Source: Bacteroidaceae bacterium (GTDB taxonomy: Bacteria; Bacteroidota; Bacteroidia; Bacteroidales; Bacteroidaceae). Taken from it: DNA of 64,000 nucleotides. Below the pieces are notes generated by a model, which did no database searches, had not been told where the DNA came from, and saw nothing but the letters and a program-made list of their open reading frames with translations. The stretch lies in contig JAZLLE010000063.1 in the NCBI GenBank assembly GCA_045597985.1, positions 13,973 through 77,972 of the forward strand, in the 5' to 3' direction. This document shows positions 21,953 through 45,999 of this stretch, piece by piece; position 1 is the first letter of the stretch; every line of letters begins with the position of its first letter. A program made the translations under genes and the position numbers.

Positions 21953-21990
21953 GGAATGTTAGTAAAAACCTGATTATAATGATTACGGAG

Positions 21991-22185: not shown

Positions 22186-22231
22186 CGGACAGAAAGCAAT
22201 TTCTGTTAAAACGGACAGGAAGCAATAATAT

Positions 22232-25200: not shown

Positions 25201-25288
25201 CGGAACATTCGTCAGCGTATTCTTTGTGCCTCTGTGCTACTATGCTATTGAGATGCGCAGGGAGAGACGTGGCAAATCAGCCAAATGA
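22232..25288 (+). CDS. RND efflux permease (AcrB/MdtB-like), first of two tandem copies
   Basis: A 1018 aa ORF with the 12-TM plus two large periplasmic loop organisation and an N-terminus FIKRPIAVIMILIAVMVLG typical of ACR_tran proteins. Confidence 0.9.
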   Translation: MFKGLIKRPIAVIMILIAVMVLGIVSIRMLPVSLVPDIDIPQITVQVSSPNMSARELNETRINGLRGELVQVPDLESIICETKDGNGVITMTFKYGTDADYIFMDVNERIDRATGGWPQSEDRPTVMRASATDIPAFFVNVTLKDDFDQTSNRFLEMSDFTRQVIVRRFEQLPEVAMVDITGQVFPEMLIVPDMETLNALGITETELENAINGANVQLGNLSIRDGEYRFNVRFESRILTVQDIMDVYLNIHGRVFQIKDLAEVREQPQVRKGMATSDGKPTITLAVIKRTESKMADLRKGVRELTEAFATDYPDMEFQITRDQTELLDYSINNMVSNLLFGALFACLIIFFFMQDFKSPLLVVITIPTALIMSFMMFYVLHISINVISLSGLVLGLGMMVDNSIIVIDNITQRWGKGEPLEIACVQGSQEVFGPMFSSVLTTCAIFVPLVFMSGIAGALFYDQAIAVTITLFAALLVSVLVIPVFYYQLYRKSPCLIPNKLISRISVGNMTVGYDNLLKWFFRRRGVMWGIFGASVLLIGVIFTNIGKERLPQMSHNDTLLKIEWNQRVTAEENSRRCNELVNEFDQLVEQSTVMAGVQQFVLSHTGDIGPSEAVIYMKTASTRDVRRLEKEVSDYMRSHWPKAVFSCKASGNLFDMIFADKEATLTAHIRVSDGSTPEPAQLNELLEKLRKALPGVYIRPAEWNEYIEMVTDPEKLALYGVSYGQVLSYLQQSLGDNSVMRVAKGSQSVPVIIGTDRKQADDLIQNNYVRTSDGGKVPLEILLKENRNRDLKNITSGVEGEYYRLELEPSRKEIKSTMATIKKIVRQDERFEVDFAGSYFSNRTMVKELCLVLLISVLLLFFILAAQFESLIQPCIIMSELVIDIFAALAVLFICGETLNLMSMIGIVVMSGIVINDSILKVDTINRLRQSGMELKHAIFEAGSRRLKAILMTSLTTILAIAPFLVRGNMGSDLQYPLSLALISGMIAGTFVSVFFVPLCYYAIEMRRERRGKSAK

Positions 25289-29148: not shown

Positions 29149-32100
29149 TTACGCTGGTTTTATGGACGGCAGATAGTCCGGTGTGACGAGTCGTCGGTTT
29201 ATCAGTTCTGTCCGGATGGCTGTGTATCTGGTGGCGATGTTCAAGGCTTGTTCTGCTGGAATGTGCCTGAAAACATAATCAAGAGCGGGACAGAAGTATT
29301 TCAATTCCAGCGCCCTTACGTTATTGTCGGACAGCAGGACAAGTTCCATGAGCTGGAGAGTCTGCAAAGCCAGTTCATACAACCCGTCAGGATTGCCATT
29401 CACTGCGTGGCAGAACAAGTCCAGCACCTGTGCCATCATCAAATGCCGCATTGCAATGGAATCCTTAGGGTTCTTTTCAAGAATATCCAAGGTGGTGCTG
29501 CGTAGTTCTTCAATAGGTTCTTCTGTCAGCGAACCGCAGCTGGCAAGAATGTCCGCTCCGGACTTCAGCATAGTGGCAAGGCTGTGATGGAGCATGATGT
29601 CATCGGGATGCTTCCGATGTTCCTTACGGAGAATGTCAATGGCTTTTGCAATTGAATCGGAAGCCTGCTCCGGCCTTCCTGCAACAATCTGGCAACGAGC
29701 CTGATAATCCCAGACAAAAGAATATTGTCTGGCAATACCTGGTACTGAAAGATATCGCTCCATCTCATCGATCAGCTGTCCGTTCCACTCCATTGCCACA
29801 GCATTATCAAGACTCATCAGGATGCCACTTCTCCGTACCTTTGCCATATATAGATCCAGAAGCATCGCATCTGAAGGCTGATTTTGGGCGAGAAGCCTGA
29901 AGAGCTCAATTGAGACTCTGTTTTTTTCCAGACCGATTGTTATGTATCTTTTCTGCTGGGCTGCATTTGTCCCCATATCAATCCAGTTGGAAGAATGCTC
30001 ATCCAGACACGAAGCGTAGCTGTATGTCAGTGAGAATGTCGGACTGTTCAGGTATAGTATTCTTGTCTGCTGTTCCTGCAATCCCTTGAAATGAACGGCA
30101 TTCGACAGATTGCCGCAATAACGCTTCTCAAAGTCTGATCTGGCATCAAAATACAAGGCGTTGGCAAGAATGGCACAAAGGCTCTTGTGGGTAAGCGCGT
30201 TTATTTGCAGGAATGCCGACTCCATGGCTGAGATGATCTGTGCGGATATATTCGGATCTGAAGTCCTTTCAATCATACACTTTTCCAAGAAGATGAAATT
30301 CCAATACGAGATGCATAACAGGATCTGACTGTCATAGCTCTGAGATTCATGGAACCTTGCCAGTGAATCATAGAACGACTGTTCTGCATTCCCTTCAAAC
30401 AGGGACACCAGTTCAGGCCAAACGGTTTGTGTAGCAGAGCAGGCGATTTCATTCCTTGTCCGTTCAATGAAAAAAAACGTACAGGCATTTAGTTCGGCTC
30501 TGATGGCCTCATATATCATACCATCGGCATATTCAGGAAGGCTTTCAATTATCTTGCTCAACTGCAATGCCTTACCGTATAGGTAATTCCATGGCTTGGG
30601 CTGTTCGAGTGGATCAATGTCGCACGGTCGCATCCCTGACGTGTTACGAATGTCATTGTCGAACTTGATGACATCGGCGATATAATCCTCTTTAAGCAGA
30701 GGAGCAAATGTTTTTTTTACTGTTTGAAAGGAGAGCAGGGATACGTCTTCGCGATATGACTGCCTCAAGCGTTCAAGAGATGTGAAACCAAAAGACGCTG
30801 AATCCAATACTTCACGGGCGAGGCAGGCTTCTTCGTCGGTTGGGAATGATTCGACCAGATAATCCGGCAGCAGGCGGACATCAGGGGGAGTGTTCTCAAT
30901 GACTTCTTGCAGATAGAAGGAGATCTTTTCTGCCTCATCCACATCAGCGATGTTTCTCATCTTCGCAAAGTCATTCAAATCCAGTCCGATAAGATGATTG
31001 AGAACCATTATAGTCCACAATGGATTGCCGCATGCCGGTCTGCCGTCATCTCTCTTCCTCTCAGTCAGAGAGTCGAGAACTTTCCTTGGCAGTCCTTTGT
31101 GAGCTATTTGCGTGTACAGGGCGGCGATTTGTCTGGTAGATTCTTCATCCTGTTCTGGTATCGACAGATAGCGGGCGTTTTCGCCATCGCGCAGACAGGT
31201 GATGTCAATATTAGTCGTGAGGACGATGGAAAAGTTCTGCGTGTCAACCAAATCGGCAAGGATATATTTAAGATCTTTCAAGTACTGCACATTGTCTATC
31301 AGGAGCAGCACCCTTTTCTCCTGTTGTCCGGCGATTTCTGACAGATACTTCATCAGAATGCCGGGGTGAGCCTCTACCGACAGAGGCAGCTTCGGGAAGC
31401 CCTGTCCGGGAAGCATCCACAGAAACTTTTTCAGCATCACCTCCGCATAAGAGTCATACCCGGCTTTGCACGAGAAGTGCATAAGCGGAAGCCATTGTCC
31501 GCTATCCCGCAGCTCATTGAACAAGTGGGCAATCAGAGATGTCTTCCCCATACCGTCCCAGGCCTTGATTACAAGAGGCGTCGACGAAGAACCAAGGTGT
31601 GATGTCACCTCATTGAGAAATGCAGCATCGGGGACATAGTATGAATCCCTTTCTTCGGCGAAGGTAAAGTCTGCGCGGACCATATCGTCCAGCTCGGTGC
31701 AGTTCGCCGCATCAATGTCAATCTCCGACATTATGGTACGAACCAGTGGGTCGACTATGGATGTTATTGCCTTTTCATCAATTTCCAGTGACGTGCCATT
31801 CCAGCGGCAGTCATAATCTATGACATTACGCGTGTATCCGCTTGACTGATAGGTATCCCGGATTTTTCTCCGAAGACTGTCCAACTTGGCCACGTATCGG
31901 GGGTCGCTGTCACAGAAAATGGCTTTGGATACAGGATTCATCTTTTCATATACGTCCGGCTTTCTTAAAAAAAAGAAACTGCTTGAAAGAGATTTCCTGT
32001 CGTTCAAGACTCCGAACAGCATTTCTAATTCCGTGACACTACGTACATCACCCAGATCATCGCCCATCATGGCCCGTTCTTCGTCAGTCATGGAATCAAC

Positions 32101-32403
32101 GATGCCTTGCCAACGGTTTTCGGGAGGAATCCAACCATACCTGTCGCCGACGAAGCCGATGAAGAATGGTCGGGATGTTCGGATATAATCGAGGCAGTCA
32201 TTAAGAACCTTGCTCTCGCGTTCTTCTTCAGGTATGTCCTGTGTGTTCACACCCCAACGCAAGTCAACTATTCGGACTGCAGCATCTACATGCCTGAATT
32301 TCAGAGCACTTTCTATGGCAGGTTTCAAGACACTGAGCACAATGTCCCGTTCAGCGTCCATGTCCTTGAAAGTACTGCTTATAAAAATGCCTATAGTTTT
32401 CAT
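29149..32403 (-). CDS. DUF4062 (N-terminal) - P-loop STAND/NACHT-like NTPase - C-terminal helical (TPR-like) repeat protein
   Basis: A 1084 aa ORF. The N-terminus IFISSTFKDMDAERD...FFIGFVGDRYGWIP matches my recollection of DUF4062. Walker A is AWDGMGKTS and Walker B is RVLLLIDNV. The C-terminal ~550 aa is all-helical repeat-like sequence. Confidence 0.8.
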   Translation of the reverse strand: MKTIGIFISSTFKDMDAERDIVLSVLKPAIESALKFRHVDAAVRIVDLRWGVNTQDIPEEERESKVLNDCLDYIRTSRPFFIGFVGDRYGWIPPENRWQGIVDSMTDEERAMMGDDLGDVRSVTELEMLFGVLNDRKSLSSSFFFLRKPDVYEKMNPVSKAIFCDSDPRYVAKLDSLRRKIRDTYQSSGYTRNVIDYDCRWNGTSLEIDEKAITSIVDPLVRTIMSEIDIDAANCTELDDMVRADFTFAEERDSYYVPDAAFLNEVTSHLGSSSTPLVIKAWDGMGKTSLIAHLFNELRDSGQWLPLMHFSCKAGYDSYAEVMLKKFLWMLPGQGFPKLPLSVEAHPGILMKYLSEIAGQQEKRVLLLIDNVQYLKDLKYILADLVDTQNFSIVLTTNIDITCLRDGENARYLSIPEQDEESTRQIAALYTQIAHKGLPRKVLDSLTERKRDDGRPACGNPLWTIMVLNHLIGLDLNDFAKMRNIADVDEAEKISFYLQEVIENTPPDVRLLPDYLVESFPTDEEACLAREVLDSASFGFTSLERLRQSYREDVSLLSFQTVKKTFAPLLKEDYIADVIKFDNDIRNTSGMRPCDIDPLEQPKPWNYLYGKALQLSKIIESLPEYADGMIYEAIRAELNACTFFFIERTRNEIACSATQTVWPELVSLFEGNAEQSFYDSLARFHESQSYDSQILLCISYWNFIFLEKCMIERTSDPNISAQIISAMESAFLQINALTHKSLCAILANALYFDARSDFEKRYCGNLSNAVHFKGLQEQQTRILYLNSPTFSLTYSYASCLDEHSSNWIDMGTNAAQQKRYITIGLEKNRVSIELFRLLAQNQPSDAMLLDLYMAKVRRSGILMSLDNAVAMEWNGQLIDEMERYLSVPGIARQYSFVWDYQARCQIVAGRPEQASDSIAKAIDILRKEHRKHPDDIMLHHSLATMLKSGADILASCGSLTEEPIEELRSTTLDILEKNPKDSIAMRHLMMAQVLDLFCHAVNGNPDGLYELALQTLQLMELVLLSDNNVRALELKYFCPALDYVFRHIPAEQALNIATRYTAIRTELINRRLVTPDYLPSIKPA

Positions 32404-32411: not shown

Positions 32412-33638
32412 TCAACAAATGGAGCTGAATGAAGGCCGGAATGCCTCTCTGATCCTCTGCGCGAAGGCATTCAAGACTTCTTGCTGGCTAAAACCGAATG
32501 CCTCAACTCCCATCTTGATCATCAGATTGACCTCTTCAGCCTTCAACTTGTTGTCGGAGAGGACTTGATCCATTATGAATTTGAACAGTTCAAACCGGAG
32601 ATTGGGATTTTTCTGCAGAATAGCAGCCAGACTTTCATTAAAGACTCTCACGACATCGCCATTCTCAACTTTTTTCAACATATTCATCGGAAACAGGGTG
32701 AATTGCGATATTCTCTGGAGAATGTTTTCCTTTTCATCTTTGGATACTTCACCATCTGCACTTGCGATCAGGAGGCCGGCCGCTGCCATGAAATATGGCA
32801 TTTTGCTATCTATTTCCGATGTGGTTACCCTGCTTATCATAAACACCAGTTTTTTCATAATCGAGTCAAGTTCCTCCTGAGATGAGGCTGTGGCGAAGGC
32901 ATTGATGGCTTCGACCCTGATTGCATTGGCAGGGTGGTCGTTATATTGGAGGGACAGGAATTGTCCTTCGTAGAAATGAGCGAGAAGCTTGTGGTTGTGT
33001 CGGACAAATGCATCTATGTCAATATTCATTCCCTTCAGGTTTAGCCCAGACTGCAACTTAAAGAAAGCTGAAATGCAGGCATCTCTGTTCCCTGCCGCAA
33101 GGTAGCCGAAACGGTCAGCCACCAGTTCGCATAACTGGTTCCACGCCCTGACTTTAAGCTGGAGAAGCAAAGGTGACATGGATTCCAATTCCGGAAAGAT
33201 AAAAGAAATCAGGTTCGACAGTTCCCCGTCTCGGTTTATCTGGTGACCAAGTTCATGGCCGACCACAAAGCGCAGTTCGTCTTCTGTCATAAGTTCGATA
33301 AGTGCGGAATTGAGTCTTATGATTATCGGACGGTCAGGAGCAGTGTCAACTAAAGTGCAGGCATTGGCGCTTATCGAGTTGGTAATATAGAACTCGGCCT
33401 GTCTGTCAAATCCAAGTTTTGAGATTGTGTCCTGCAATAACTGATACAGATGTGGCATTATTTCCGGCTCAACCTTCAGCATATCTATGGCAAGGCTGGT
33501 ACGTATCAGGCTGTCATTCTGACCAATGGCTCCGACAGACTGCATGACCTGATCTATTACATCGCCTTCAAGCGAATCGTGTATTCTCTGTTTGAGTTCG
33601 CGCTCATAATTGAGAAACGGAGAAAATCTGTAATTCAT
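32412..33638 (-). CDS. M48-like zinc metallopeptidase with C-terminal TerB-like domain
   Basis: HExxH in FVVGHELGHQINRD. The C-terminal part carries LLIASADGEVSKDEKENIL plus a second half-repeat (SDNKLKAEEVNLMIKM), typical of TerB-like domains. Confidence 0.75.
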   Translation of the reverse strand: MNYRFSPFLNYERELKQRIHDSLEGDVIDQVMQSVGAIGQNDSLIRTSLAIDMLKVEPEIMPHLYQLLQDTISKLGFDRQAEFYITNSISANACTLVDTAPDRPIIIRLNSALIELMTEDELRFVVGHELGHQINRDGELSNLISFIFPELESMSPLLLQLKVRAWNQLCELVADRFGYLAAGNRDACISAFFKLQSGLNLKGMNIDIDAFVRHNHKLLAHFYEGQFLSLQYNDHPANAIRVEAINAFATASSQEELDSIMKKLVFMISRVTTSEIDSKMPYFMAAAGLLIASADGEVSKDEKENILQRISQFTLFPMNMLKKVENGDVVRVFNESLAAILQKNPNLRFELFKFIMDQVLSDNKLKAEEVNLMIKMGVEAFGFSQQEVLNAFAQRIREAFRPSFSSIC

Positions 33639-33652: not shown

Positions 33653-35398
33653 TTATTCTTTGTTCAAAATGTAATCCAGGGCATCAATCAGAATCCTATC
33701 CTTGTCCTTCTCTTCTTCAGGAAGGGACTCAAAAGGAACGATGTCGGGATGTATGAATCTTTTCTTGTCTTTGACCGGTCCTGGCTTGTAGCCCATAAGA
33801 AGGGCCGACATCACCCATCTCCTATGCTCTGCTTCGTAAACTGGCAACTGTTCTGAACTTATGTCAAAGCATTTAGTGCGTAGTGGAAGAGCGCTGGCGC
33901 AGAAGATGCTGGAGCATTTGTCTGCCTCACTGATCGGATACCATGCATCTTCAGGGGAGTCTGCAGGAGGATTCATATACGCCTTGTTGTAAATGAAATT
34001 CACTCTTTGTCCGAGTTTCAGCCTGTTTCCCATCAAAGGGTCGGTAATAGTTTTGTTTGCAAGGCCGAATATGGTGATGTCACCATACATTCCGGTTGAC
34101 AGAGCCAGTTGGATGATGTCATCGGAATCATTTAGATACAAGGCTGTCCGGGAAGTTGTATGGGAAATTTCAGGAAGATGCAGGGCACATTCCACTGCCT
34201 TATGCGAATCCTCGATGCAAATCAATATGCGCAATTCCGTTGATCCGTCTTTTGCTGATGATTGGATTATGTCCCTTGGAATGGAGTCGTTATGTCCAGC
34301 CTCAACAAATTCCCATTCAATGTCAAGATAATCATTTTCTGATGCAGGACTATGTTCTGTCCTGACTCCACTGCCGGATATGAAGGTGTAGTGAGACATC
34401 TCGAACAGGGTCGGATGAGCGGCGAGCATGGACTGACGGCATTCTGATATGTCGGGATCAATCATGGTGATGACGGTCCGACGCCCGAACCGTTTGAATG
34501 AAGGATAATGGCAGATATGGGCTATTTCGACAGCTGTTGAAACCGCTACCTTACCGGAACCGAAAATGACAAAGCGGGCCGCCTTGTCTTCCGATGTCCT
34601 GATGACCGGAAGGTAATCAGTGCCAACCATCAGTTGTTCGGCATAATATTCAAATTCATCAATGATGTTAACCTGCAGTCCCGATACGCAGCCGTCAGAC
34701 TCCGAAGCGTTCTTCATGTACTGGAACACTTCCTTGACTTCCTGCTCCCTGATTGAAAGGAAGCATGGAATTTTCCTGTCTGTCGCAGGAACGGCTCTCT
34801 TGAGGATAGACAGAGTCCTGAGGTTGAGCGCATCGTGATTCGGGTCGGAAGCATTGCCTGTCAAATAGATGCACTCTGCATCATATATACAGGTTGAAAG
34901 GATATCGTCCTCATCGGTTTGACTTCCATGGTAGTAATAGACCTCGTTCCCCAGTTCCGGATCGTTTTCACAGAGGACAACAACAGTCTTTCCACTGTCG
35001 AGAAGAGCCTGCACCACAACAGGTACACTGCCTCCCTCTCCGAAAACGACTACGTGTCCTTTCAGGCGATAGCGTCTTTCTCCATTCCTGACGGATTCAC
35101 TGATATTGTCGAAGATATTGGTGAATACGCTTATGAGAAGTGCGGAAAATACCAGAGTGCTTAAAATAGCGAGAATGATACGGAACCAGTAGTGCGAACC
35201 GGCTGCCAGGGAATAACCCGGGTCCAGAAAAACCGCCACCACATCCTCCCACGAGAAGTCACCTTCGTCAAAGAACAGTTTTACCGTCAGTATCGCTGAA
35301 AATATTATCAACAGCGTTATTGCACAGAGCCATCCAAGCTGCTTTCCACTGTCTTTTGCCAAAAGCCTGTCCAGTTTTCTCTTTAATGGGGATTTCAT
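33653..35398 (-). CDS. 2-TM membrane protein with two Rossmann/RCK-like domains and a C-terminal RyR domain
   Basis: The start is set at MKSPLKRK (35398); the longer ORF to 35509 would overlap the upstream gene. TM helices are LGWLCAITLLIIFSAILTVKLFF and FRIILAILSTLVFSALLISVF. VVVFGEGGSVPVVVQALLDSGKTVVVL is Rossmann-like. The C-terminus EHRRWVMSALLMGYKPG..KRFIHPDIVPFESLPEEEKDKDR matches the RyR-domain signature. Confidence 0.7.
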   Translation of the reverse strand: MKSPLKRKLDRLLAKDSGKQLGWLCAITLLIIFSAILTVKLFFDEGDFSWEDVVAVFLDPGYSLAAGSHYWFRIILAILSTLVFSALLISVFTNIFDNISESVRNGERRYRLKGHVVVFGEGGSVPVVVQALLDSGKTVVVLCENDPELGNEVYYYHGSQTDEDDILSTCIYDAECIYLTGNASDPNHDALNLRTLSILKRAVPATDRKIPCFLSIREQEVKEVFQYMKNASESDGCVSGLQVNIIDEFEYYAEQLMVGTDYLPVIRTSEDKAARFVIFGSGKVAVSTAVEIAHICHYPSFKRFGRRTVITMIDPDISECRQSMLAAHPTLFEMSHYTFISGSGVRTEHSPASENDYLDIEWEFVEAGHNDSIPRDIIQSSAKDGSTELRILICIEDSHKAVECALHLPEISHTTSRTALYLNDSDDIIQLALSTGMYGDITIFGLANKTITDPLMGNRLKLGQRVNFIYNKAYMNPPADSPEDAWYPISEADKCSSIFCASALPLRTKCFDISSEQLPVYEAEHRRWVMSALLMGYKPGPVKDKKRFIHPDIVPFESLPEEEKDKDRILIDALDYILNKE

Positions 35399-35466: not shown

Positions 35467-36396
35467 TTAGCCGAAAATCTTGTAGAACAGAATTGTCAGG
35501 ACAGTACACGCAGCCGCACTTATGACAGGAAGCCCAATCGATGGACCGTCAAAGATCAGACATACCATAGTAAAGGCATAGAGGAACAACAATTCAGCAA
35601 CAACTCCTATAAGGACGGCAATTGTGCCGTCAATCACATAGTCGGTATATATCATCAGCAGCGGCAGAGCGATGATGAAAGGAACGGACACTAGTAAAAC
35701 AAGCAATGCGAGAAAGAACACGATTCTGGCTACCCAGGACACTATCCTTACAGTAAAATCTCCAAAATGATAATCCTTTTCTGTCTTTGCATCATCTTCT
35801 TTCAAATATGATATGTAGCCGTGCAGTTGAGAAGCTCTGACTCCATGCCTTACAAGAGAGGACATCCCCGGAATCAATGAATAAAACTTTGCTTTCTTGT
35901 CGGGAACCAGGGAATAGTCCACATTTGTGGCAAGGCTGTCCTTGAAAGTAATGGTCACGCTTTCCGTTGAAAGGCTGTCATCCTTAGCAAGGACTTTTAT
36001 GGGGAAAACCACCTCCGCTCCGCTCATTTCCGAAGGGTAAGCCAGCTCTCTTTCAATTTCTCTCAAGGATTTCCCGATAACCTTGGATTCAAGTGAATCC
36101 TTGCAGATCAGGGCTGCTTTGGTAGGGTCGAATCCCTTAATCTTATAGTAATGAGGCAGCTCGGATATTTTGACCCAGGAGCGTGTGCCGTTTTCCCATT
36201 GAACCAGAGCCTCCCTCTCAGATAGAGACTTCTTGTCCGAACGCTCTGCTAGAAGGTGCGCTTCTTTCTTCCCAACCATGCACTCCCAGACGGGATCGTC
36301 GGGAGCCTCGAACGGATTGCCGAGAGTCGCTCTGAAATAAAAGAATGCAGAAACGATTATGGCAAGACTGACAAAAGAACTGATTATATACTTCAT
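35467..36396 (-). CDS. Membrane protein of unknown family (N-terminal TM, ~200 aa extracytoplasmic domain, 3 C-terminal TMs)
   Basis: A 309 aa ORF with clear hydrophobic segments at both ends and no recognisable motif. It is co-directional with and tightly spaced within the operon. Confidence 0.6.
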   Translation of the reverse strand: MKYIISSFVSLAIIVSAFFYFRATLGNPFEAPDDPVWECMVGKKEAHLLAERSDKKSLSEREALVQWENGTRSWVKISELPHYYKIKGFDPTKAALICKDSLESKVIGKSLREIERELAYPSEMSGAEVVFPIKVLAKDDSLSTESVTITFKDSLATNVDYSLVPDKKAKFYSLIPGMSSLVRHGVRASQLHGYISYLKEDDAKTEKDYHFGDFTVRIVSWVARIVFFLALLVLLVSVPFIIALPLLMIYTDYVIDGTIAVLIGVVAELLFLYAFTMVCLIFDGPSIGLPVISAAACTVLTILFYKIFG

Positions 36397-36415: not shown

Positions 36416-37222
36416 TCATGCATCGAAACGCCCGTCATCATCAATATAATCTTCATCATTCAATCCCGGAGCGAATTCCCCTTCACCGACAAGAGCCACG
36501 ATGACCGAGATGTTGTCGTGGCCGCCGTTGTCCCTGGCACGCTCGACCAGCCCTGCAGCCGGTTCAAAGTCATTGGAAAGGATTACCTCCATTTCATCAT
36601 CACTTACCTCATCGGTGAGGCCATCGGAGCAGATGACTATCATATCCTCATCAAGGAGACGGTCAGTGATATTCTCCACCTTTACAGCCCCTATACTTCC
36701 AGCGCCAATGCAGGAGAGCAGGAGTTTTTTGTCTCTCACGTTGCCTGTGATTCCCCTCTCCGTATCGTCAGTCGTGAGTTGGGTGAGTCTGCCGCCCCTG
36801 AAACGGTACGTTCTGCTGTCTCCGGAATTCACAAGAAGGATTTGTCCGAGCATCCAGATTACTCCGGTAAGAGTGCATCCCATCGCGGATTTCAGTCCTT
36901 CTTCAGCTGCCCTCCCATTGAATTCGGCGCTGATCCCGGCAAGGTGGTCTGTAAAAGCGGATACAAAGGCCTCAGGAGAATCGAATTCTCTGTCAGACAG
37001 CAGTTTGTCTATGCTTGTCAACAGTTCCCTGCTGGCTACTTCGCCTTTTTCGTGTCCTCCCATGCCATCAGAGACGAAAAGATGGAACTGCCTCATTTCC
37101 TGCACATTGACAGTAAGGTCGGTGCCGGCATCACTCAACAGAAAACCTCCGAGGGACAACATATCCTCATTATGATCTCTGATACAACCTTTGTCGCAGT
37201 ATGCCTGAATAGTCAGTTTCAT
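36416..37222 (-). CDS. PP2C-family Ser/Thr protein phosphatase
   Basis: PP2C motifs RDHNEDM, VSDGMGGH, CSDGLTD and GGHDNISVIV. Confidence 0.9.
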   Translation of the reverse strand: MKLTIQAYCDKGCIRDHNEDMLSLGGFLLSDAGTDLTVNVQEMRQFHLFVSDGMGGHEKGEVASRELLTSIDKLLSDREFDSPEAFVSAFTDHLAGISAEFNGRAAEEGLKSAMGCTLTGVIWMLGQILLVNSGDSRTYRFRGGRLTQLTTDDTERGITGNVRDKKLLLSCIGAGSIGAVKVENITDRLLDEDMIVICSDGLTDEVSDDEMEVILSNDFEPAAGLVERARDNGGHDNISVIVALVGEGEFAPGLNDEDYIDDDGRFDA

Positions 37223-37725
37223 TGGATGACGAAGGATAAACGTGAGATTTTAAGAGTATCTCCCTTTTTGATAGGATATGGAGTGTTGGGTTTGAGTCGG
37301 ATTCCGTTCAGATATGTACCATTGGTGCTTCCATAGTCCATTACGGTCCAACCTTGAGAAGTACGGGCAAACTCTCCGTGCCTGCCCGACACAAAAATGC
37401 AGGATGAGAATTCCGCATAGATTCCGCTTGTCCTTCCGAAAGGGCCTGCTTTCAGCTCAAGTTTCATCCCCTCGCCTGCCAGATACCAGGGCTTGGCATC
37501 CACAGTGATGTCAGCAGTCCGGACTGTGGTTGTCGCAATAGTTGCGGGGCTGATTCCGGCTTGAGAGAAATACTCTTTGCCCCCGACGAGTGTGGCTCCG
37601 CATATAGGGCATTCCGTTCCTCTTTGAAGAACTTTGCAATCAGGACAGAAAGACAGTTTCTGACCGCACTGATCACAGTAGAAGCTGTCATCATCTATAA
37701 TTTCCTTGCAATAGAGGCATCTCAT
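37219..37725 (-). CDS. Double zinc-ribbon plus FHA domain protein
   Basis: The N-terminus has four CxxC pairs (CLYC..CDQC..CPDC..CPIC). The C-terminal FHA signature is GR..(SG)RH..DYGSTNGTYLNG...GD.L. Confidence 0.85.
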   Translation of the reverse strand: MRCLYCKEIIDDDSFYCDQCGQKLSFCPDCKVLQRGTECPICGATLVGGKEYFSQAGISPATIATTTVRTADITVDAKPWYLAGEGMKLELKAGPFGRTSGIYAEFSSCIFVSGRHGEFARTSQGWTVMDYGSTNGTYLNGIRLKPNTPYPIKKGDTLKISRLSFVIQ

Positions 37726-40217
37726 ATATTCATTCTTTTCATTTCGTTATAACCTGCATCCATATCCTCAAGCGTAATCGTGCACTCCTGGTCTTCGCTT
37801 GTATCACTTCCGGCATACAAAAGTCTCATATTATGGCAGTTGCGCACGTTGTCAAACAGGTTCCCGACATCGCGGGCATTTCCGAAATTGGCATCCCTGC
37901 AGACATATATCTCCTCGAATATCGCACAGGCGCGTGAATATGCCTCCGGATCCAGCCTGTACTCATTCTTCACCACGATGCGCCTGAATATCTCCATCAT
38001 CTGGGCCGCATCGTAATCCTCAAAGAATATCTTCTGGGTGAAGCGTGACTTGAGCCCGGAATTCGTTGCCATGAACGCCGTCATCTCCTTGGTGTAACCG
38101 GCCGCGATGCACACGAACTTGCCTTTATTGTTGAGGAGCAGCGGGACGAGGGTGCCGATACATTCGAGCCCAAAGTCATCCTGATGGCTGGTATTCAGGG
38201 TGTAAGCCTCATCTATGAAGAGAATGCCGCCCATTGCCCTCATTACGGCATCCCTGGTCTTGGAAGCTGTCTGGCCCTCATATTCAGCAACCAGATCCCC
38301 GCGCCCCACCTCAACGACTTCATCCGTCGCCAGGACTCCGAGGCTCTTAAGTATTTTACCCATCATCCTCGCAACGGTGGTCTTACCTGTTCCGGGATTG
38401 CCGAGGAACATATAATGGTCTGCGGGAATCTTTGGCGAACATCCTTTCCGTAGGGCTTTCTTCTGCTCCTGAATGATGTTGGCGGCAAGCAGTTTCAGGT
38501 ATCTTTTCACGCCATCGAGTCCTACAAGCTCATCAAGTTGCGACAGGACTTCATCTATACAGATATCCCTTGTCCCTTCTTCACCGACAATGTCCTCGTA
38601 TGTTAGGGTTTTTCCTTCATTCCTCCTGGTGGCGGCATCCAGTCCCTCAATTCGTTTCCCTCTCCTTTCCACTGCTGCTTCGAAGAAATTGCGGACATCA
38701 CGTCCGTTGCCGAACTGCTCGGAACGACGGTTGTACATCTGTTCCATTGGGATATGGAGCTTCTCGATTGCCTCATCCGTAAGGGAGAACCCGGCCTTGG
38801 TTGCGTTCAGCAAGAAAATCTTCTCAAGTTCGACAGGTTTGTAGTCGGGGAATTCTATTGTTTTGTTGAAACGCGACTTTAGTCCGGAATTTGCCTTCAT
38901 AAAATCGCCCATCTCCCGTTTGTACCCCGCAATGATGCAGACGAACTGGCCTTTGTATGTCTCAAGAAGAGGCAGCAGGGTGTTGATACCCGCCTGACCG
39001 TACTGTCCGTTTGCCAAACCGTAGGCCTCATCAATGAAAAGGACTCCGCCCATGGCCTTGTCAACGACATCCCGGACGTTCTTCTCAGTATCTCCGATAT
39101 ACTGGCCTATAAGTTCCGAAGGATTAGTCTCTATGAGCTGACCTTTGGGAAGAGCCCCGATTGCGGCAAGTATTTCTGCGAATTTTCTGGATATCGTAGT
39201 CTTGCCCGTTCCGGGATTTCCCGTGAACACATAGTGGTCGTTGACAGTCACCCTTGCATCCGGTCCCTGCTCTTCCTGCACAATGTGGATGTCGTTGATG
39301 ATTGTTCTGATTTCGTTTTTGACATTTTCAAGTCCGATGAAGTTGCTGAGGTCCTCCCAAATTTCCGTTTCGGAACGCGGGACGAAAACCTTGCCCTTGA
39401 CGTCATCAGGAATTATCGTATCTGTCCCGCCCCTGTTGAACATATTGGTGGCAATCTCTTCTGCCTTGCTTACGGCTAGATGACCGTTCCCCGGTGTCCC
39501 CTCTCCCAGGTGCACCATCCATTCATAATGCCCCTTAAGTCTGGTGACGGCGTCATCAGTCATATTCAGCTTAAACCTTTTTTTCAGGATTGCGGCAGTT
39601 AGAGCGGCCAGAACATCCTCATCAATGTTGACGAGCCGGAAATTGAACTCAAAGAGGTTCGCGACTCCACGATTGTAGGACAGGAAACTCTCCATATCAT
39701 TGTAGAGTCCTGTCATAATGACAACGGGCAACTTTGACGCACCCTTGGTCATCCTCGCAAACAGGGGGTCCAGTGAGGTGATCTCCGACGACCTGGCCCC
39801 ACATAGGATCTTGTGAACGTTTGTAATGACCAGCACGCCTTCGGAAATGCCCGACAATTGTTTGTCCAGATCCGAGGCCCAGTTGTCATAGTCAGCTGCA
39901 TCCACTTCAACAACCTGCTTCTTATCGACTATTCCGGCCCCGGCTGCCATATCAATTATTTCATTGGCGATGAATTTCTTGCCGCTTCCCTGGGGGCCGA
40001 GGATAAGGCTGTCCAGTCCGACTCTTGTGCCTGTCCCTGATATTTTGAGATGAGACGCCAGCTTAAGTCTTTCCTGGAATTTTTTAATTTCGTTTTCCAG
40101 ACACTCTTTACCGAAATATCCTTCCCTTGAGACAATTATCTCGAGGGGCTCTCCGCATTTCTTGCAGAATCTGGCGGACGGACGGTTCTGGGCACCGCAT
40201 TTGTTACAATTACTCAT
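37722..40217 (-). CDS. Zinc-ribbon protein with three tandem CbbX/SpoVK/EccA-type AAA+ modules (first one degenerate)
   Basis: The N-terminus has CNKC..CKKC. Module 1 has GPQGSGKKF and no DE Walker B (GVLVITN). Modules 2 and 3 have GNPGTGKTT and LFIDEAY, plus SGLKSRF sensor/arginine regions. Confidence 0.85.
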   Translation of the reverse strand: MSNCNKCGAQNRPSARFCKKCGEPLEIIVSREGYFGKECLENEIKKFQERLKLASHLKISGTGTRVGLDSLILGPQGSGKKFIANEIIDMAAGAGIVDKKQVVEVDAADYDNWASDLDKQLSGISEGVLVITNVHKILCGARSSEITSLDPLFARMTKGASKLPVVIMTGLYNDMESFLSYNRGVANLFEFNFRLVNIDEDVLAALTAAILKKRFKLNMTDDAVTRLKGHYEWMVHLGEGTPGNGHLAVSKAEEIATNMFNRGGTDTIIPDDVKGKVFVPRSETEIWEDLSNFIGLENVKNEIRTIINDIHIVQEEQGPDARVTVNDHYVFTGNPGTGKTTISRKFAEILAAIGALPKGQLIETNPSELIGQYIGDTEKNVRDVVDKAMGGVLFIDEAYGLANGQYGQAGINTLLPLLETYKGQFVCIIAGYKREMGDFMKANSGLKSRFNKTIEFPDYKPVELEKIFLLNATKAGFSLTDEAIEKLHIPMEQMYNRRSEQFGNGRDVRNFFEAAVERRGKRIEGLDAATRRNEGKTLTYEDIVGEEGTRDICIDEVLSQLDELVGLDGVKRYLKLLAANIIQEQKKALRKGCSPKIPADHYMFLGNPGTGKTTVARMMGKILKSLGVLATDEVVEVGRGDLVAEYEGQTASKTRDAVMRAMGGILFIDEAYTLNTSHQDDFGLECIGTLVPLLLNNKGKFVCIAAGYTKEMTAFMATNSGLKSRFTQKIFFEDYDAAQMMEIFRRIVVKNEYRLDPEAYSRACAIFEEIYVCRDANFGNARDVGNLFDNVRNCHNMRLLYAGSDTSEDQECTITLEDMDAGYNEMKRMNI

Positions 40218-42735
40218 TGATGATTCCTCTTTCTTTCCTGGTTATCTGAATTCCGGACTCTACGGCGTCAGGCGTGTCCGTTATTTTATTGATATAATAC
40301 TGCCCAACCATAAGGACCCAGAAAATGGCAATGAATATCAGCAGCGTCTTGCGACGTTTCTTCAAAGTATTCCTGTAATCCTCAATGGCGTCATCATCAA
40401 CATAGGCACTCAATGAAGAAGTGAATGTCTCTTCGTTGTTGAAGGCGAAATACAGCGGTTCCAGAGTCAATTCCATGAAACCTGGCCCACCTTTCATTCT
40501 GTCAACATCTCCCGCACGGCCCACAAATACGACCTTGACCAAGAAAAGTATGATAATGGTCAGGATGACGGCTGCATAAATCCATGTCAGATAGGCTCCC
40601 AGCAATTTCACAATCACAAAAAGAAGTATGCCCAAAACCAGTCCGGATATGATTGGGACAAAACATCCGTCAACATCAAATAGGAACGAAGCTACTATGC
40701 CCAGAGCAACTCCTATAAGTATGAAGGTCCAACCGAAATTGATTCCACTTATATTGATTTCAGGGTATTCCGCTACAAGGTTGATGGCGCTTATCATAAG
40801 GATGACTGCCGGTATCCCAGCAAGCACCAATGAAAGGATGCGCTGTATCAGGCCTCTGGCGGCAAGTGGTCCTGCACCGCGTCCGGCTTTGTCGGCTGTA
40901 TCGCCTGCAATGCAGACAGCTAAATCGAAGCGCCGGCCCTCAACGCAGTCAGGACAATATTTGCGATACTCTTTCAGATAATCGGCAAGCAATTTCTCAT
41001 AGGTGTATTGTCTTGCCATGTCAATATACGGGTTTTCGTGGTACTTTACCGCTAAAAAGCCGCGTATTCCTGCCGGCTCGTCAGGATAGTCGTAAGTCGG
41101 GGTATGCTCGAAACCGACGATGGTCTTCATCATTGCTGTCTGTTCCAGATAATCAGCATCCTTTGGACCGGCTTTTTTCTTATTGTCCCGGCTGTCGAAA
41201 TTAAGGCAGTACTTCAACCAGTCAAGTTGTTTAGTGAATCTATTCCCCTTGTGTCTGAAGAACCAGACGAGATAACTTTTTTCCGAATACAATTCAAAAC
41301 TTGAGATCAGACGCACAAAGATGCCGGATCCGTTTATTATTCTGGAACATTCAGAGTCCCATTCCTTCAGAGCCCTCTTCCTGTCACCTCCGAATCTTCC
41401 GTAGAAAATGTTATATGCTTCATTGAGAACCGCTCCGATAGACTCTCCGGTCATAGCGTATCCGGGATTATCCGGAGTGCGCAAGTTCAGGTCATACAAA
41501 GGATTCAGAATGTGAAGGGCGCACAACATTCCCGAAATTTCATCCTTCGGGAAATCCTTCTCCACTATGCGGTCTATCTCAATTTTCAGCTCCGGTCGTT
41601 TTTCCAGCCATTTGGACACCTGTCCGCTGTAAAGGTAGGATCTGGCCAGTTTCTGGTCTTTAAGCATGAATGCAGCCAACTCCTGCGGCGAATGTGCCAC
41701 CTGGTTTTTCTGACCATTGAAAATGACTTCGAAGCCCCCTGCGTACACTGAAACCTCATCTTGTTTCTGAATTGTGCGTCTGATTTCAGCTAATCCCCAC
41801 CTGTGTGCGGGGTCCTTGACAAGGAGACCACGGATAATCCTGTTCAAAGGATCGGGAATATCCCCGTCAACCTTAATCTTGTCATTCCGTTTCTCAATCG
41901 CCAGTTCGGCTTCTCTCGCATACAGGTTCTTCTCCCCTTTCCACAGACTGAGGGCTGTCATTCCAAGTGAATAGAAATCCGATGCCGGTGTCAAAGTACA
42001 ATAAGTCTTCCCTCCGATGATCGCCACATTGGAAGGATCATACACTTCGGGAGCGGCATAAATCGGTGTCCTGTTCTGAACTGTGGACACTTTCCCGTTT
42101 TCAAAAAAGTCCGCGAACCCGAAATCGCAAAGAACGCAATCCCAAGTATCTTTGTCCGTTATGAGAATGTTGGCCGGTTTGACGTCCTTGTGTATGAAAC
42201 CATTCCTGTGACAGGCATCAAGGCACAGCGCAATTTTGGCTACTATGTGCGTGATAGCTTCGACATTTCCCCTCAGATCGTATTGTGCGGCAGCTCCAAG
42301 TGGATAGTATTTCATCAGCTCGAAATCACATTGTATGCCGTCAAAGTCCCTGGTACCAAAGTCTATGACGTCAGCCACGTAACCCTTGCCGGACATTGCC
42401 TTGACCTTTTTCAGGATCCCGGCATTGCACTTGACATTAGGCTTATAACGTTTGAGGGCAGTTCCATCATTCTGGATGATGAGCTCCCCCTCGGAGCCAC
42501 TAACTGAGGGACCTGACCCGCGTCTCATATCCGGTCCGGGTTGAGGTGCAACGGCCTCGGGGTCTATGGCAGAGCCTTGGGGTGTATATTGCACCGCCTC
42601 AGGATCTATGGCGGAACCCTGAGGGGTATATAGCATATCTTCGGAATCCAAGGCCGTCCAAAGGTCGGTATTCAGCACCAGTTCCGGACCGTTTTTGCCT
42701 CCGGAATCCTGATTATCGTCAAGTTGGTCTGCCAT
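40210..42735 (-). CDS. Membrane-anchored Hanks-type Ser/Thr protein kinase (non-RD) with large unknown middle domain and ~5 C-terminal TMs
   Basis: Catalytic loop HKDVKPANILI, plus DFGFA and AAPEV motifs. There is an N-terminal tandem YTPQGSAIDPEAV repeat. Five hydrophobic helices lie in the last ~230 aa. Confidence 0.85.
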   Translation of the reverse strand: MADQLDDNQDSGGKNGPELVLNTDLWTALDSEDMLYTPQGSAIDPEAVQYTPQGSAIDPEAVAPQPGPDMRRGSGPSVSGSEGELIIQNDGTALKRYKPNVKCNAGILKKVKAMSGKGYVADVIDFGTRDFDGIQCDFELMKYYPLGAAAQYDLRGNVEAITHIVAKIALCLDACHRNGFIHKDVKPANILITDKDTWDCVLCDFGFADFFENGKVSTVQNRTPIYAAPEVYDPSNVAIIGGKTYCTLTPASDFYSLGMTALSLWKGEKNLYAREAELAIEKRNDKIKVDGDIPDPLNRIIRGLLVKDPAHRWGLAEIRRTIQKQDEVSVYAGGFEVIFNGQKNQVAHSPQELAAFMLKDQKLARSYLYSGQVSKWLEKRPELKIEIDRIVEKDFPKDEISGMLCALHILNPLYDLNLRTPDNPGYAMTGESIGAVLNEAYNIFYGRFGGDRKRALKEWDSECSRIINGSGIFVRLISSFELYSEKSYLVWFFRHKGNRFTKQLDWLKYCLNFDSRDNKKKAGPKDADYLEQTAMMKTIVGFEHTPTYDYPDEPAGIRGFLAVKYHENPYIDMARQYTYEKLLADYLKEYRKYCPDCVEGRRFDLAVCIAGDTADKAGRGAGPLAARGLIQRILSLVLAGIPAVILMISAINLVAEYPEINISGINFGWTFILIGVALGIVASFLFDVDGCFVPIISGLVLGILLFVIVKLLGAYLTWIYAAVILTIIILFLVKVVFVGRAGDVDRMKGGPGFMELTLEPLYFAFNNEETFTSSLSAYVDDDAIEDYRNTLKKRRKTLLIFIAIFWVLMVGQYYINKITDTPDAVESGIQITRKERGIINE

Positions 42736-43469
42736 TATTCTTCAGCTTTGATTTTTTTTTTGACAACGCGTTCCTGCAGCACCTTGTCCTCATACACCCA
42801 GGTTCCTCCCCGGAAGGGCTCGGCGCACTCGCTCGGCTGTCTGTGATGGCAGCCGCAGAAATTGCAAATCCATCCCACTGGTGATTTGATCCTGACTTCC
42901 TCCTGCAATACGGTGGTGACGGCGATGTTTCTCGCGGAATAATAGTTGAACTGCTGCTGAGGTGTGCTCCCTGCGGGAGGAAGCATTTGGGCGAACAGCT
43001 CTTCTATATCCTTCACCGTCCGGAGATATTCTTCCTGCAGTCCAGGAGCAGCGGCTTCAGTGAAGGCGATATCAGACGAGAACATCTTGAGAAACTCCAG
43101 AGTCCCTTCGCTTGCCTCTGCCGCCGTTCCGGAAATCCGCTCTTTTATTTTCACGGCTTTCTCTATAAGGCGGCTGACTTGTTGGTAAACAGGATCACGC
43201 TTTGCCTTTTCAATGGCGGCTTCCGCAGCCCTGTTCAACGGGGCATTGCATCTGCTGCAAAATGAACGATAGTTTAACGTACCGCATACCGGGCATACAG
43301 TGCCGCCGAGGGGCATTCTACATTCGTCGCATACGGTCTGTCCGGGGACTGTCCGAGCTCCGCAAAAACTACACTCGCCTTCAGGCGGCTTGCCCGTCTC
43401 ATGTCTTCCGGGGGACTTTGTTACTGTCCGCACGGTCTCTTCCCATTTTTGCCTGCCTTCCATATCCAA
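42735..43469 (-). CDS. Zinc-ribbon protein (double zinc ribbon N-terminal, extra CxxC near the C-terminus)
   Basis: CSFC..CDEC..CPVC..CSRC, then a helical linker, then WICNFCGCHH. Its stop overlaps the kinase start (TAATG). Confidence 0.65.
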   Translation of the reverse strand: MDMEGRQKWEETVRTVTKSPGRHETGKPPEGECSFCGARTVPGQTVCDECRMPLGGTVCPVCGTLNYRSFCSRCNAPLNRAAEAAIEKAKRDPVYQQVSRLIEKAVKIKERISGTAAEASEGTLEFLKMFSSDIAFTEAAAPGLQEEYLRTVKDIEELFAQMLPPAGSTPQQQFNYYSARNIAVTTVLQEEVRIKSPVGWICNFCGCHHRQPSECAEPFRGGTWVYEDKVLQERVVKKKIKAEE

Positions 43470-45254: not shown

Positions 45255-45291
45255 TTGTTTAGAAATTAATGAGAGATTAGCTACATGTTTG

Positions 45292-45299
45292 CAAATATA
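45292..45299 (-). promoter_or_regulatory. -7 promoter box TATATTTG for the ten-gene operon
   Basis: The minus strand reads cttATATTTGcaaac about 40 nt upstream of the ATG at 45254 and fits TAnnTTTG. Confidence 0.45.
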
Positions 45300-45999
45300 A
45301 GAATTATTAGAAAACACATTCACTAATTCCTATCTTATTTTGGACCATCGGATGCCCTATTTGGCGTCCTCACGCAGTTTCTCTTTATATTTCCCGTCAT
45401 AGTCATCACCTCTCGGAACAAGGTACTTGAAGAACACGCAGTCGTAAATGATCTGTATGTGGAAGATGAAGAACGTACGGAGGCCCACGTTTTGTATCAA
45501 AACTGTAATCTGAGAGTGTTAGCCAGTTGAACAATAAGCTCGCATACTATGATGGAGCGGTGTTGTATCAATAAGGAATATTTACATATTTCGCTCAGCT
45601 CATGATGTCGCTCTGACTGTTTGCCTGATGTAAATATGAGGATTTTACCTCCATATTACAGGCGCGTCGGATGTGTCGCCTAAGACGCCCGTTTCCTGGG
45701 TTCAATAGATGACAAGTGGAGGTCATCTATAGAACCTTCGAGACCCCCTTCTTTTATGAGCGTTTTATGAATTTGAATAGATTGAGGCCAGAACTGGCAT
45801 CCGAACCCTCTTGTCATATTTCATATTCTGCTTGTACATTCTTGTCGCGAGTTGTAAAATATCCTAACAAATCTTTATCCCACACTTTTTGGGCGAGCCG
45901 TTTTGGCCAGTCCGATAGCGAACATTATCATTACGTTATTTTATAGCTTGAGAAAACTGTCCCCGTTTTTGTATAACTTCGTGGCAAATTTCTTTTTAG

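Follow-up and report, generated by a model that had tools for sequence, protein, structure and literature searches.

The window analysed here, 64,000 nucleotides (nt) of contig JAZLLE010000063.1 from a Bacteroidaceae bacterium (positions 13,973 to 77,972 of the forward strand), contains a minus-strand gene whose 1084-residue product combines an N-terminal NIR (DUF4062) domain, a central STAND NTPase module and C-terminal helical repeats. The protein is predicted to be a new Bacteroidales member of the NIR-NLR NADases, a group in which the tripartite single-protein layout is no longer new. We give an even chance to the reading that the gene provides the NLR-like component of a conserved Bacteroidales cassette, that this component hydrolyses nicotinamide adenine dinucleotide (NAD+), and that its output is read by an adjacent channel-like protein. 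The gene and its parts are as follows.

29149..32403, minus strand: NIR(DUF4062)-STAND-TPR-like gene, ATG start, 1084 residues (open reading frame list, Pfam DUF4062 and AAA_22, TEP1 NIR match, AlphaFold2 model).
31714..32403, minus strand: residues 1–230, NIR/DUF4062 domain, predicted TIR-like NADase (Pfam, TEP1 match, E127 in 63/63 homologues).
31159..31593, minus strand: residues 271–415, P-loop NTPase core, with the K287 codon at 31543–31545 and the D370 codon at 31294–31296 (Apaf-1 and ADR2 profile matches).
30604..31158, minus strand: residues 416–600, helical/winged-helix arm of the STAND module (GLPL-like motif, AlphaFold2, Foldseek matches to SAMD9, Sr35 and Dark).
29152..30603, minus strand: residues 601–1084, all-helical TPR-like solenoid, presumed to sense or bind a partner (AlphaFold2, Foldseek).

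An identical 1084-residue protein is recorded at NCBI on an 89-kb contig (P0001). The AlphaFold2 model was computed from a 63-sequence alignment, on which all homologue counts for residues of this protein are also based, and has a predicted local distance difference test (pLDDT) value of 89.6 and a predicted template modelling (pTM) score of 0.84. The model comprises four parts: an α/β domain (residues 1 to ~230), a P-loop α/β core (277–414), a helical/winged-helix arm (420–581) and a stretch of 22 helices (602–1069). Foldseek matches of the whole model are to SAMD9 (E = 3e-8), Sr35 (CNL), Dark/Apaf-1 and LGN-type TPR proteins. Effector, STAND module and repeats are thus all present by Pfam, AlphaFold2 and Foldseek. 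A first-pass annotation made from the sequence had proposed this layout, with an N-terminal DUF4062 module, a STAND P-loop NTPase and a helical-repeat C-terminus. Profile matches exist both to DUF4062 (above the Pfam threshold, and to TEP1) and to STAND NTPases (Apaf-1 and ADR2), the Walker A (AWDGMGKTS) and Walker B (LLLIDNV) motifs read as given in that annotation, and the modelled C-terminus is all-helical and TPR-like. Its effector-NTPase-sensor interpretation is backed by NADase and defence experiments on relatives, NIR being the effector of a Pseudomonas Avs2.

Conservation decreases along the chain, from the NIR domain, the most conserved part, through the NTPase and the helical arm to the C-terminal solenoid, the least conserved. 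Homologue P0015, for example, shares 53% identity with the window protein in NIR, 38% in the NTPase, 29% in the helical arm and 21% in the C-terminus. This gradient is the pattern expected of an enzyme effector with a diversifying sensor.

The Pfam DUF4062 model (PF13271) spans residues 6–96 (43.2 bits, E = 4.4e-11; gathering score 24.7), and the homology extends beyond it: residues 2–204 align with the crystal chain of the human TEP1 DUF4062/NIR domain (11gz_A) at E = 5e-15, and the family profile matches the same chain at E = 5.8e-43. In the AlphaFold2 model strands alternate with helices over residues 2–210 with pLDDT of about 80–90; the fold search used the whole protein only and returned STAND and TPR structures, not TIR. 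The candidate catalytic glutamate, E127 (codon 32023–32025), is kept in 63 of 63 homologues, compared with 51 of 63 for E125. The segment S122-V-T-E125-L-E127 aligns with S-V-T-E-M-E of TEP1, so that E127 is the second glutamate and corresponds to TEP1 E1008 provided that the 220-residue PDB chain spans residues 894–1113, a numbering assumed here. Residues R19, R49 and R88 are invariant in the alignment, which fits the three active-site arginines described for TEP1. The predicted NADase catalytic site of the window NIR domain is intact.

Three preprints of 2026 (including bioRxiv 10.64898/2026.09.04.749371 and 10.64898/2026.05.01.722283) rename DUF4062 as NIR, a TIR-like NADase that converts NAD+ to ADP-ribose (ADPR) and nicotinamide. 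DUF4062-STAND proteins are reported to defend against phage, and NIR is the effector of Pseudomonas PsAvs2 as well as of Swarozyc, Evangelion, Vulcan and Vesta, in abortive-infection defence. The catalytic glutamate (E1008 in TEP1, E108 in PsAvs2, E97 in KpSwz) is needed for NIR activity and defence in every system with a reported mutant. In prokaryotes at large NIR genes show a statistical enrichment beside defence genes (20%, against 3.9% expected), and about 9% of genomes carry NIR, as a single gene. Kinases, M48 peptidases, RyR domains and Bacteroidales contexts are not mentioned in these preprints.

The NTPase core carries the Walker A motif A281-W-D-G284-M-G286-K287-T288-S, with G284 and G286 invariant and K287 present in 62 of 63 homologues, and the Walker B motif L-L-L-I-D370-N-V, with D370 in 55 of 63. 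Family profile positions 264–478 match the Apaf-1 NB-ARC (E = 8.7e-6) and the plant TNL ADR2 (E = 8.9e-6). Among Pfam models, the generic AAA_22 alone passes for the NTPase (28.7 against 27); NPHP3_N falls below threshold (16.5 bits against a cutoff of 24.8), the NACHT and NB-ARC models are likewise not above threshold, and NCBIfam returns nothing for the protein. More distant homologues do match NACHT, NPHP3_N and nSTAND1. The adjoining arm is modelled as helices (residues 420–565) and a β-hairpin (570–581) and contains the GLPL-like motif G-N-P461-L462-W463, in which P461, L462 and W463 are each found in at least 90% of the 63 homologues. The C-terminal ~480 residues (602–1069) resemble TPR solenoids such as LGN/Pins, with template modelling scores of about 0.5–0.59 normalised to the target, and a search of 1.84 billion representative proteins returned no meaningful homologues of the solenoid outside the DUF4062-STAND clade.

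The putative reader of the NADase output is encoded two genes upstream.

33653..35398, minus strand: channel-like protein with two transmembrane segments, tandem RCK domains and a C-terminal RyR/R12 domain, 581 residues (Pfam RyR, PDB RyR repeats, AlphaFold2, Foldseek).

The ATG start at 35398, which leaves a 68-nt gap, is backed by the NCBI gene call and by all homologues; an alternative GTG at 35509 would give 618 residues and a 43-nt overlap with the upstream membrane-protein gene. In the AlphaFold2 model (pLDDT 88, pTM 0.82) a short re-entrant helix is flanked by two transmembrane helices, and the rest consists of two Rossmann-like domains and a helical C-terminal domain. Its best Foldseek matches are GsuK entries, with titles naming the ADP-bound and NAD-bound forms; next come Slo1/BK, MthK and the gating ring of CASTOR, all at a sequence identity of only 13–15%. 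GsuK, likewise a channel with tandem RCK domains, is under the control of ADP, NAD+ and Ca2+. At the C-terminus lies a RyR repeat (Pfam PF02026) with PDB matches to the repeats of RyR1-3, to the Bacteroides thetaiotaomicron entry 3nrt and to entry 35tm. It contains the R12 tetrad H525, W528, H550 and D567 (codons 33824–26, 33815–17, 33749–51 and 33698–700), the residues of which are invariant or at least 90% conserved across a channel family of only about 30 detectable homologues in a set of 5.8 billion proteins. According to a preprint of May 2026 (PMC13232231), two cyclic forms of ADPR, 2'cADPR and 3'cADPR, are bound or cleaved by phage proteins with RyR/R12 domains, and the RyDEP crystal holds linear ADPR through H75, W78, H100 and D117, residues conserved across PF02026. 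The tetrad spacing of the window protein, 3/25/42, is identical to that of RyDEP.

With its R12 tetrad and GsuK-like RCK ring the channel would carry a domain able to bind an ADPR-derived ligand, as judged at the level of sequence only. Since NIR enzymes release ADPR and the tetrad is of the RyDEP type, the predicted NADase product falls within the class of ligands expected for the tail domain of the neighbour. Gating of the channel by ADPR is the strongest claim made here, and comparative genomics and residue conservation are all that it draws on.

The association of the two genes was followed among relatives. A scan of one genome per species yielded 23 loci and exact-protein look-ups a further 12, which were typed by tblastn and Pfam mapping. 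The scan loci are gut or rumen Bacteroidales metagenome-assembled genomes, save L021 (Phytobacter) and L023 (Eubacteriaceae). Four cluster types were distinguished.

Type A (window, L001, L002 and L024; 65–86% identity): TerB-Sel1, double zinc ribbon (DZR), kinase, AAA+, DZR-FHA, PP2C, membrane protein, channel, M48-TerB, STAND.
Type B (L025–L028): two small genes, channel, M48, STAND, Sel1, a 116-residue gene, DUF1963, SH3 protein; without kinase or AAA+.
Type C (L003, L004, L029 and L030): DUF1963, a 381-residue gene, Sel1, STAND, channel.
Type D (L005–L018): TPR, DUF1963, a 1356-residue STAND protein, AAA+, sometimes DZR with a kinase-like gene and a second AAA+, SH3, channel.

Orthologues of the STAND gene are accordingly not confined to solitary positions: the operon is retained in four of four close relatives, and relatives of ~30% identity still lie in related multi-gene clusters. 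The type A cassettes of L001, L002 and L024 occupy differing chromosomal sites with differing flanking genes, from which we infer that the cassette moves as a unit. Across the ~30%-identity homologues it is the RCK/RyR channel-like gene, and not that of the kinase, which stays most faithfully beside the STAND gene. The channel gene is adjacent in types A, B and C, in most of type D, and next to 804-residue and NACHT-WG forms of NIR proteins, with varying gene order; other recurrent companions are the M48-TerB, Sel1, DUF1963 and SH3 genes. The first-pass annotation had placed the STAND gene as the last cistron of a phospho-signalling operon. The gene does end the string, 8 nt after the M48-TerB gene, but the kinase is not its conserved partner.

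Two further observations concern individual loci of this set. The only enterobacterial match, L021 (Phytobacter massiliensis NZ_HE578949.1), has two divergent DUF4062 genes ~4 kb apart, at 7377–8756 (plus strand) and 11040–14071 (minus strand), one of them with a STAND-like region, and has no channel homologue. The SH3 gene of type B and the 381-residue gene of type C form one family (L026:11048–12313, L025:14025–15374, L029:8130–9275, L003:901–2046) with transmembrane segments and a C-terminal H-Y-E-like ADP-ribosyltransferase signature (L-Y-H-G-T ... G-I-Y-F-A-P ... W-W-E-Y-C-M-Y). Pfam PARP matches it below threshold (E = 2e-4), and the best catalytic-domain match in the PDB is PARP4 (E = 0.02). 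Vaults have two minor proteins, PARP4 and TEP1, the latter a NIR protein, so that in bacteria, too, a NIR-NLR seems to be paired with a PARP-like enzyme.

The association was also examined in reverse, from the channel. A metagenome scan seeded with an 11-sequence channel alignment gave 65 loci; all loci were scanned with hidden Markov models, and the channels were grouped at 70% identity or more into 20 clusters, 16 of which were found via the channel itself. In 12 of the 20 clusters, and in seven of the 16 channel-ascertained ones, a NIR or TIR gene is found no more than 6 kb from the channel. Six of these 16 have a NIR gene, including architectures unlike that of the window (DUF4062-NACHT-WG, L060), and one of the six also has a TIR-Sel1 protein in some members (L036, L070). 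One further cluster (L073–L075) has a canonical TIR gene only, directly downstream and encoding a TIR-zinc ribbon-FGE sulfatase protein. The channel may precede or follow the NIR gene, and the gaps range from an overlap to a few tens of nucleotides. With NIR present as a single gene in about 9% of genomes, we judge its recurrence beside the channel across independent architectures to be far above chance. Some channel homologues adjoin TIR and patatin genes typical of defence islands. In a 19-locus human-gut cluster (L040–L053, L057, L058, L079, L095 and L097) the gene immediately preceding the channel is always that of a 322-residue Ser/Thr kinase (e.g. L047:8871–9839), and NADase genes are absent; kinase-channel adjacency therefore recurs independently of the large kinase of the window. 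As a separate observation, the association of the channel with the downstream gene for a TIR_2, zinc-ribbon and FGE-sulfatase protein (L075:11848–13455, L074:5264–6952) is conserved at 52% identity between loci.

The STAND gene closes a ten-gene minus-strand string that runs from 45323 to 29149 with intergenic distances of −8 to +68 nt. In the order of transcription, the genes other than the channel and STAND genes are the following.

43500..45323, minus strand: first gene, TerB-like N-terminus and Sel1/TPR-like repeats, 607 residues, start codon uncertain (weak Pfam TerB; TPR).
42735..43469, minus strand: double-zinc-ribbon protein, 244 residues (Pfam DZR).
40210..42735, minus strand: Hanks-type Ser/Thr kinase with a C-terminal multi-transmembrane region (about residues 628–816), 841 residues (Pfam Pkinase, E = 1.7e-23).
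37722..40217, minus strand: zinc-ribbon and multi-AAA+ ATPase of the CbbX/SpoVK/EccA type, 831 residues (Pfam AAA and AAA_lid_6 twice each; TIGR02881, 466 bits against 423).
37219..37725, minus strand: double-zinc-ribbon and FHA phosphopeptide-binding protein, 168 residues (Pfam FHA, E = 1.8e-12; DZR).
36416..37222, minus strand: PP2C Ser/Thr phosphatase, 268 residues (Pfam PP2C_2; NCBIfam Stp1/IreP, E = 2e-34).
35467..36396, minus strand: membrane protein without a family match, 309 residues (present in L002 and L024, absent in L001).
32412..33638, minus strand: soluble M48-type zinc metallopeptidase with a TerB-like C-terminal domain, 408 residues (Pfam Peptidase_M48, E = 4.4e-12).

The M48-TerB protein has HELGH at residues 128–132, no transmembrane segment and a TerB match below threshold (E = 5.8e-4); its gene adjoins the STAND gene in types A and B. 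It lies 14 nt from the channel gene, and its stop codon (32412–32414) is separated from the STAND ATG (32403) by exactly 8 nt. A fusion or frameshift hidden in this junction was rejected, since the homologues share the start methionine and the TEP1 alignment begins at residue 2. Terminator-like hairpins are rarer across the string than in shuffled sequence. The TAnnTTTG motif was not found upstream of the annotated first start codon, and a sigma-70 promoter scan is not meaningful for Bacteroidota. The Sel1-like homologue of the first gene is inverted in L002 and L024, and homologues of the 244-residue DZR protein occur in type D clusters and kinase-only loci. For the genes other than STAND, PADLOC and NCBIfam returned only generic kinase and AAA matches; those to mad6, mad8 and IetA cover only the catalytic domains and were rejected as evidence of membership in those systems.

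The kinase/FHA/PP2C/AAA+ genes form a facultative module, found in only some cluster types. Two loci, L104 (7177–18514) and L105 (4679–16324), contain the string DZR, kinase, AAA+, DZR-FHA and PP2C without a STAND or channel gene. The string is preceded by a large protein, TerB-like in L105 and without a Pfam family in L104; M48 is found in L105 only, and DUF1963 lies downstream in L104. In L105 an HSP20 gene and a second M48 gene adjoin the kinase module. The kinase family, of more than 400 members, appears to have no described function. The window is thus best described as joining two putative modules, a widespread phospho/AAA+ module (P) and an NADase/channel module (N). The two share the M48, DUF1963, Sel1/TerB, DZR and AAA+ families, which argues for one functional network and not for random neighbours.

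The string is flanked in the window by housekeeping genes (a resistance-nodulation-division (RND) efflux locus, DsbD and iPGM). Comparison by tblastn gave two weak DUF4062 matches in a plasmid collection and none in a phage collection, and so no sign of plasmid or phage carriage. The RND locus at 19278–28479, convergent to the STAND gene, encodes an outer-membrane factor, a membrane-fusion protein and two tandem AcrB-type pumps with frames overlapping by 4 nt. An AcrB/OEP pair also lies upstream of an unrelated type D cluster (L018:28–2718), which may reflect coincidence or a common insertion neighbourhood. Rfam places a DUF805b cis-regulatory RNA motif at 51227–51261 (plus strand; 39.2 bits, gathering score 35.6). 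It also detects two tRNA-Val genes, at 4082–4157 (plus strand) and 47968–48043 (minus strand), with anticodons GAC and CAC; neither tRNA gene directly adjoins the cassette.

The following sequence of events is proposed for the cassette. A trigger would be bound by the fast-evolving solenoid, or would arrive by way of the AAA+ remodeller and the kinase/FHA/PP2C switch at the membrane, and autoinhibition would be released. The STAND module would then bind ATP and oligomerise, bringing the NIR domains together, and the clustered domains would be switched on to convert NAD+ to ADPR and nicotinamide. The R12/RCK part of the channel would read either ADPR or the fall in NAD+, and the channel would open or close; together with the loss of NAD+ this would lead to collapse of the membrane potential and to growth arrest of the abortive-infection kind. 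The role envisaged for the M48-TerB protease and the phospho/AAA+ module is to license the response or set its threshold, and M48-TerB may license or reset the system. A fuller form of this proposal, in which the cassette is an NLR/Thoeris hybrid, is put forward tentatively and judged less likely than not: the NIR NADase would produce ADPR or a cyclic derivative, read by the R12 and RCK domains of a dedicated cation channel and licensed by the kinase/FHA/PP2C/AAA+ genes.

Several observations weigh against an NADase whose output is read by the channel in a defence-like cassette. Characterised NIR enzymes yield linear ADPR only, and single-gene NIR systems protect through NAD+ depletion alone and do not require a second effector (2026 NIR preprints). 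No TVGYG-type K+ selectivity filter was found in the channel, in which the pore loop reads F-L-D-P-G-Y, and ion conduction is putative. Nine of the 16 channel-ascertained clusters have no NADase neighbour. In one gut lineage the channel gene follows ribosomal-protein genes ending with rpsC, at ~5000–12000 in L033, L060, L061, L063 and L071, and the intervening space is variable. It holds a NIR-804-residue protein and three unknown genes in L033, DUF4062-NACHT-WG and a 154-residue gene in L060, and a 775-residue TPR protein and a 207-residue gene in L061; in L063 and L071 it is empty. The channel therefore cannot depend on NIR, and the rpsC-channel space may serve as a slot for changing sensors or be a hot spot of integration. 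The kinase family, with 422 matches, far exceeds the STAND clade and occurs mostly without a STAND gene. PADLOC families give no match to the STAND protein at E ≤ 0.01, hence none to an Avs/AVAST model, and no neighbouring defence or mobile genes were found in the window.

The nucleotide-binding site adds to these points. At the position of the second acidic residue that follows Walker B in NACHT proteins the window protein has Q373, and at that of the sensor-1 arginine it has N398; distant TPR-type homologues carry D-A-L-D-R-F-E. In a sister clade (P0017–P0023, type C, e.g. L029:10001–13261) the Walker B aspartate is replaced by asparagine (V-V-L-I-I-N-N-A), despite retention of the P-loop lysine and the NIR catalytic glutamate, and the STAND module of this clade may be locked in a nucleotide-bound state. 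Q373, N398 and the sister-clade substitution together make ATP hydrolysis doubtful, and the site looks geared to binding rather than hydrolysis.

The best-surviving alternative is that the window protein is a stand-alone Avs-like abortive-infection gene whose repeats recognise a phage protein and whose killing effect is due to NAD+ depletion alone, its neighbours being independent genes co-located at hot spots. The sufficiency of PsAvs2, Vulcan, Swarozyc and Evangelion as single genes favours this view, as do the solitary position of some relatives (e.g. a 1510-residue form in L031 and L032), the occurrence of the kinase module alone in L104 and L105, and the hot-spot appearance of one lineage in which differing inserts, or none, precede the channel between conserved flanks. 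We nevertheless consider it rather unlikely: the 8–14 nt gaps on one strand argue for co-transcription, the whole cassette relocates as a unit to different chromosomal sites, and the adjacency to the channel holds down to ~30% identity and through changes of gene order. Recurrence of the M48, DUF1963, Sel1, DZR and AAA+ families in differently arranged clusters, and the match between the channel's ADPR-type ligand site and the NADase product, also speak for a joint function.

A non-immune circuit for membrane or ion-homeostasis stress, in which the NIR-STAND protein tunes NAD(P)+ or ADPR as a channel input without killing and the other genes answer envelope or metabolic stress, is improbable in our estimate. 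It would account for the housekeeping flanks of the window and of relatives (dnaA, dnaN, ribosomal genes), for the lack of mobile or known defence genes nearby and of a PADLOC match for the STAND protein, for a kinase module very widespread in Bacteroidales, and for the HSP20 and second M48 genes of L105; that a NIR-NLR protein can be something other than a classical immune receptor is also clear from eukaryotic TEP1. However, the distribution is patchy, with cassette site and composition varying among related genomes, and the C-terminal region evolves fast. The enrichment of NIR genes near defence genes and the TIR and patatin neighbours of some channel homologues point the same way. An NTPase-dead scaffold, a constitutive adaptor tethering NIR to a channel/M48 complex and activated by phosphorylation or proteolysis only, could explain Q373, N398 and the type C Walker B substitution but is very improbable, given the near-universal P-loop lysine, the retention of D370 in the window's clade, the conserved GLPL-like motif and the fact that many functional NLRs require nucleotide binding or exchange and not fast hydrolysis.

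The context of the gene joins three hitherto unlinked discoveries of 2025–2026, namely NIR NADases, RyR/R12 domains that bind or cleave cyclic ADPR and ADPR, and ion-channel effectors of Thoeris. If the NADase product gates the R12/RCK channel, host-encoded bacterial RyR domains would gain a defined function, under the hybrid proposal the first to be assigned, and the animal axis from TIR/CD38 through cyclic ADPR to the ryanodine receptor would have in the cassette a counterpart among prokaryotes and possibly an evolutionary precursor. It would also offer a tractable bacterial model for the debated direct action of ADPR-type nucleotides on the RyR repeat domain, and show how Ser/Thr phosphorylation and AAA+ proteins can come to control an NLR. 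As a candidate defence or stress system of abundant gut and rumen Bacteroidales, the cassette escapes the PADLOC v2.0.0 models applied here. Within the literature open to search no description was found of the cassette, nor above all of a NIR-NLR paired with an R12/RCK channel under a phospho/AAA+ module that is facultative, and the cassette is not described in Kaur et al. 2020 (PMC7159879).

PsAvs2 and other NLR-like NIR proteins (Le Mouellic et al., bioRxiv 10.64898/2026.09.04.749371) share with the window protein the N-terminal NIR domain, the central STAND module, the C-terminal helical repeats and the conserved catalytic glutamate, and the reaction of PsAvs2, NAD+ to ADPR and nicotinamide followed by growth arrest, would be expected here. 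Unlike PsAvs2, which acts as a single gene, the window gene belongs to a conserved multi-gene cassette, and its product lacks a PADLOC/Avs match, has a solenoid related only within its own clade and shows partly degenerate NTPase motifs. Human TEP1, together with NWD1/NWD2 and NPHP3, also places NIR before STAND; TEP1 (11gz) is the best solved match, and the weak Pfam NPHP3_N signal is in line with this group. In contrast to the window protein, with its TPR-like repeats and membrane-protein partners, TEP1 is a eukaryotic, vault-associated protein with TROVE and WD40 domains (NIR-NACHT-WD40, vault/telomerase).

For the P module the closest comparison is with TerY-P and other Ser/Thr kinase-PP2C(-FHA) conflict or stress modules, which Anantharaman et al. 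in 2012 and Gao et al. in 2020 are said to have described. Both tie a kinase/PP2C phospho-switch to TerB-type proteins in one operon. The window string lacks a vWA/TerY protein, for which reason membership in TerY-P was rejected, and has instead the CbbX/SpoVK-type multi-AAA+ ATPase, the zinc-ribbon proteins and a multi-transmembrane kinase; the TerY-P model is also absent from the PADLOC output for the kinase among the best 25 of 33 family matches.

The channel resembles GsuK, MthK, Slo1 and CASTOR in its two transmembrane helices and re-entrant helix followed by a tandem-RCK gating ring, and differs from them in having F-L-D-P-G-Y in place of a TVGYG-type filter and an additional R12 domain. 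Thoeris type X offers a precedent: a TIR protein is paired with the ion-channel effector ThsK (bioRxiv 10.64898/2025.12.03.692087), so that there, as predicted here, an NAD+-consuming enzyme of the TIR superfamily is encoded beside a membrane or ion-channel protein with a putative response to a ligand derived from NAD. Here, however, the producer is a large NLR-type NIR protein and not a small ThsB, the tested NIR enzymes yield only linear ADPR, and the cassette has additional M48-TerB, kinase/FHA/PP2C and AAA+ genes. The phage RyDEP and RyR-R12 proteins (PMC13232231) share with the channel tail the PF02026 family and a His/Trp/His/Asp tetrad of identical spacing; RyDEP is a small soluble anti-defence enzyme or sponge of phage, whereas the R12 domain of the window is host-encoded and fused to a channel-like protein with two transmembrane segments and RCK domains.

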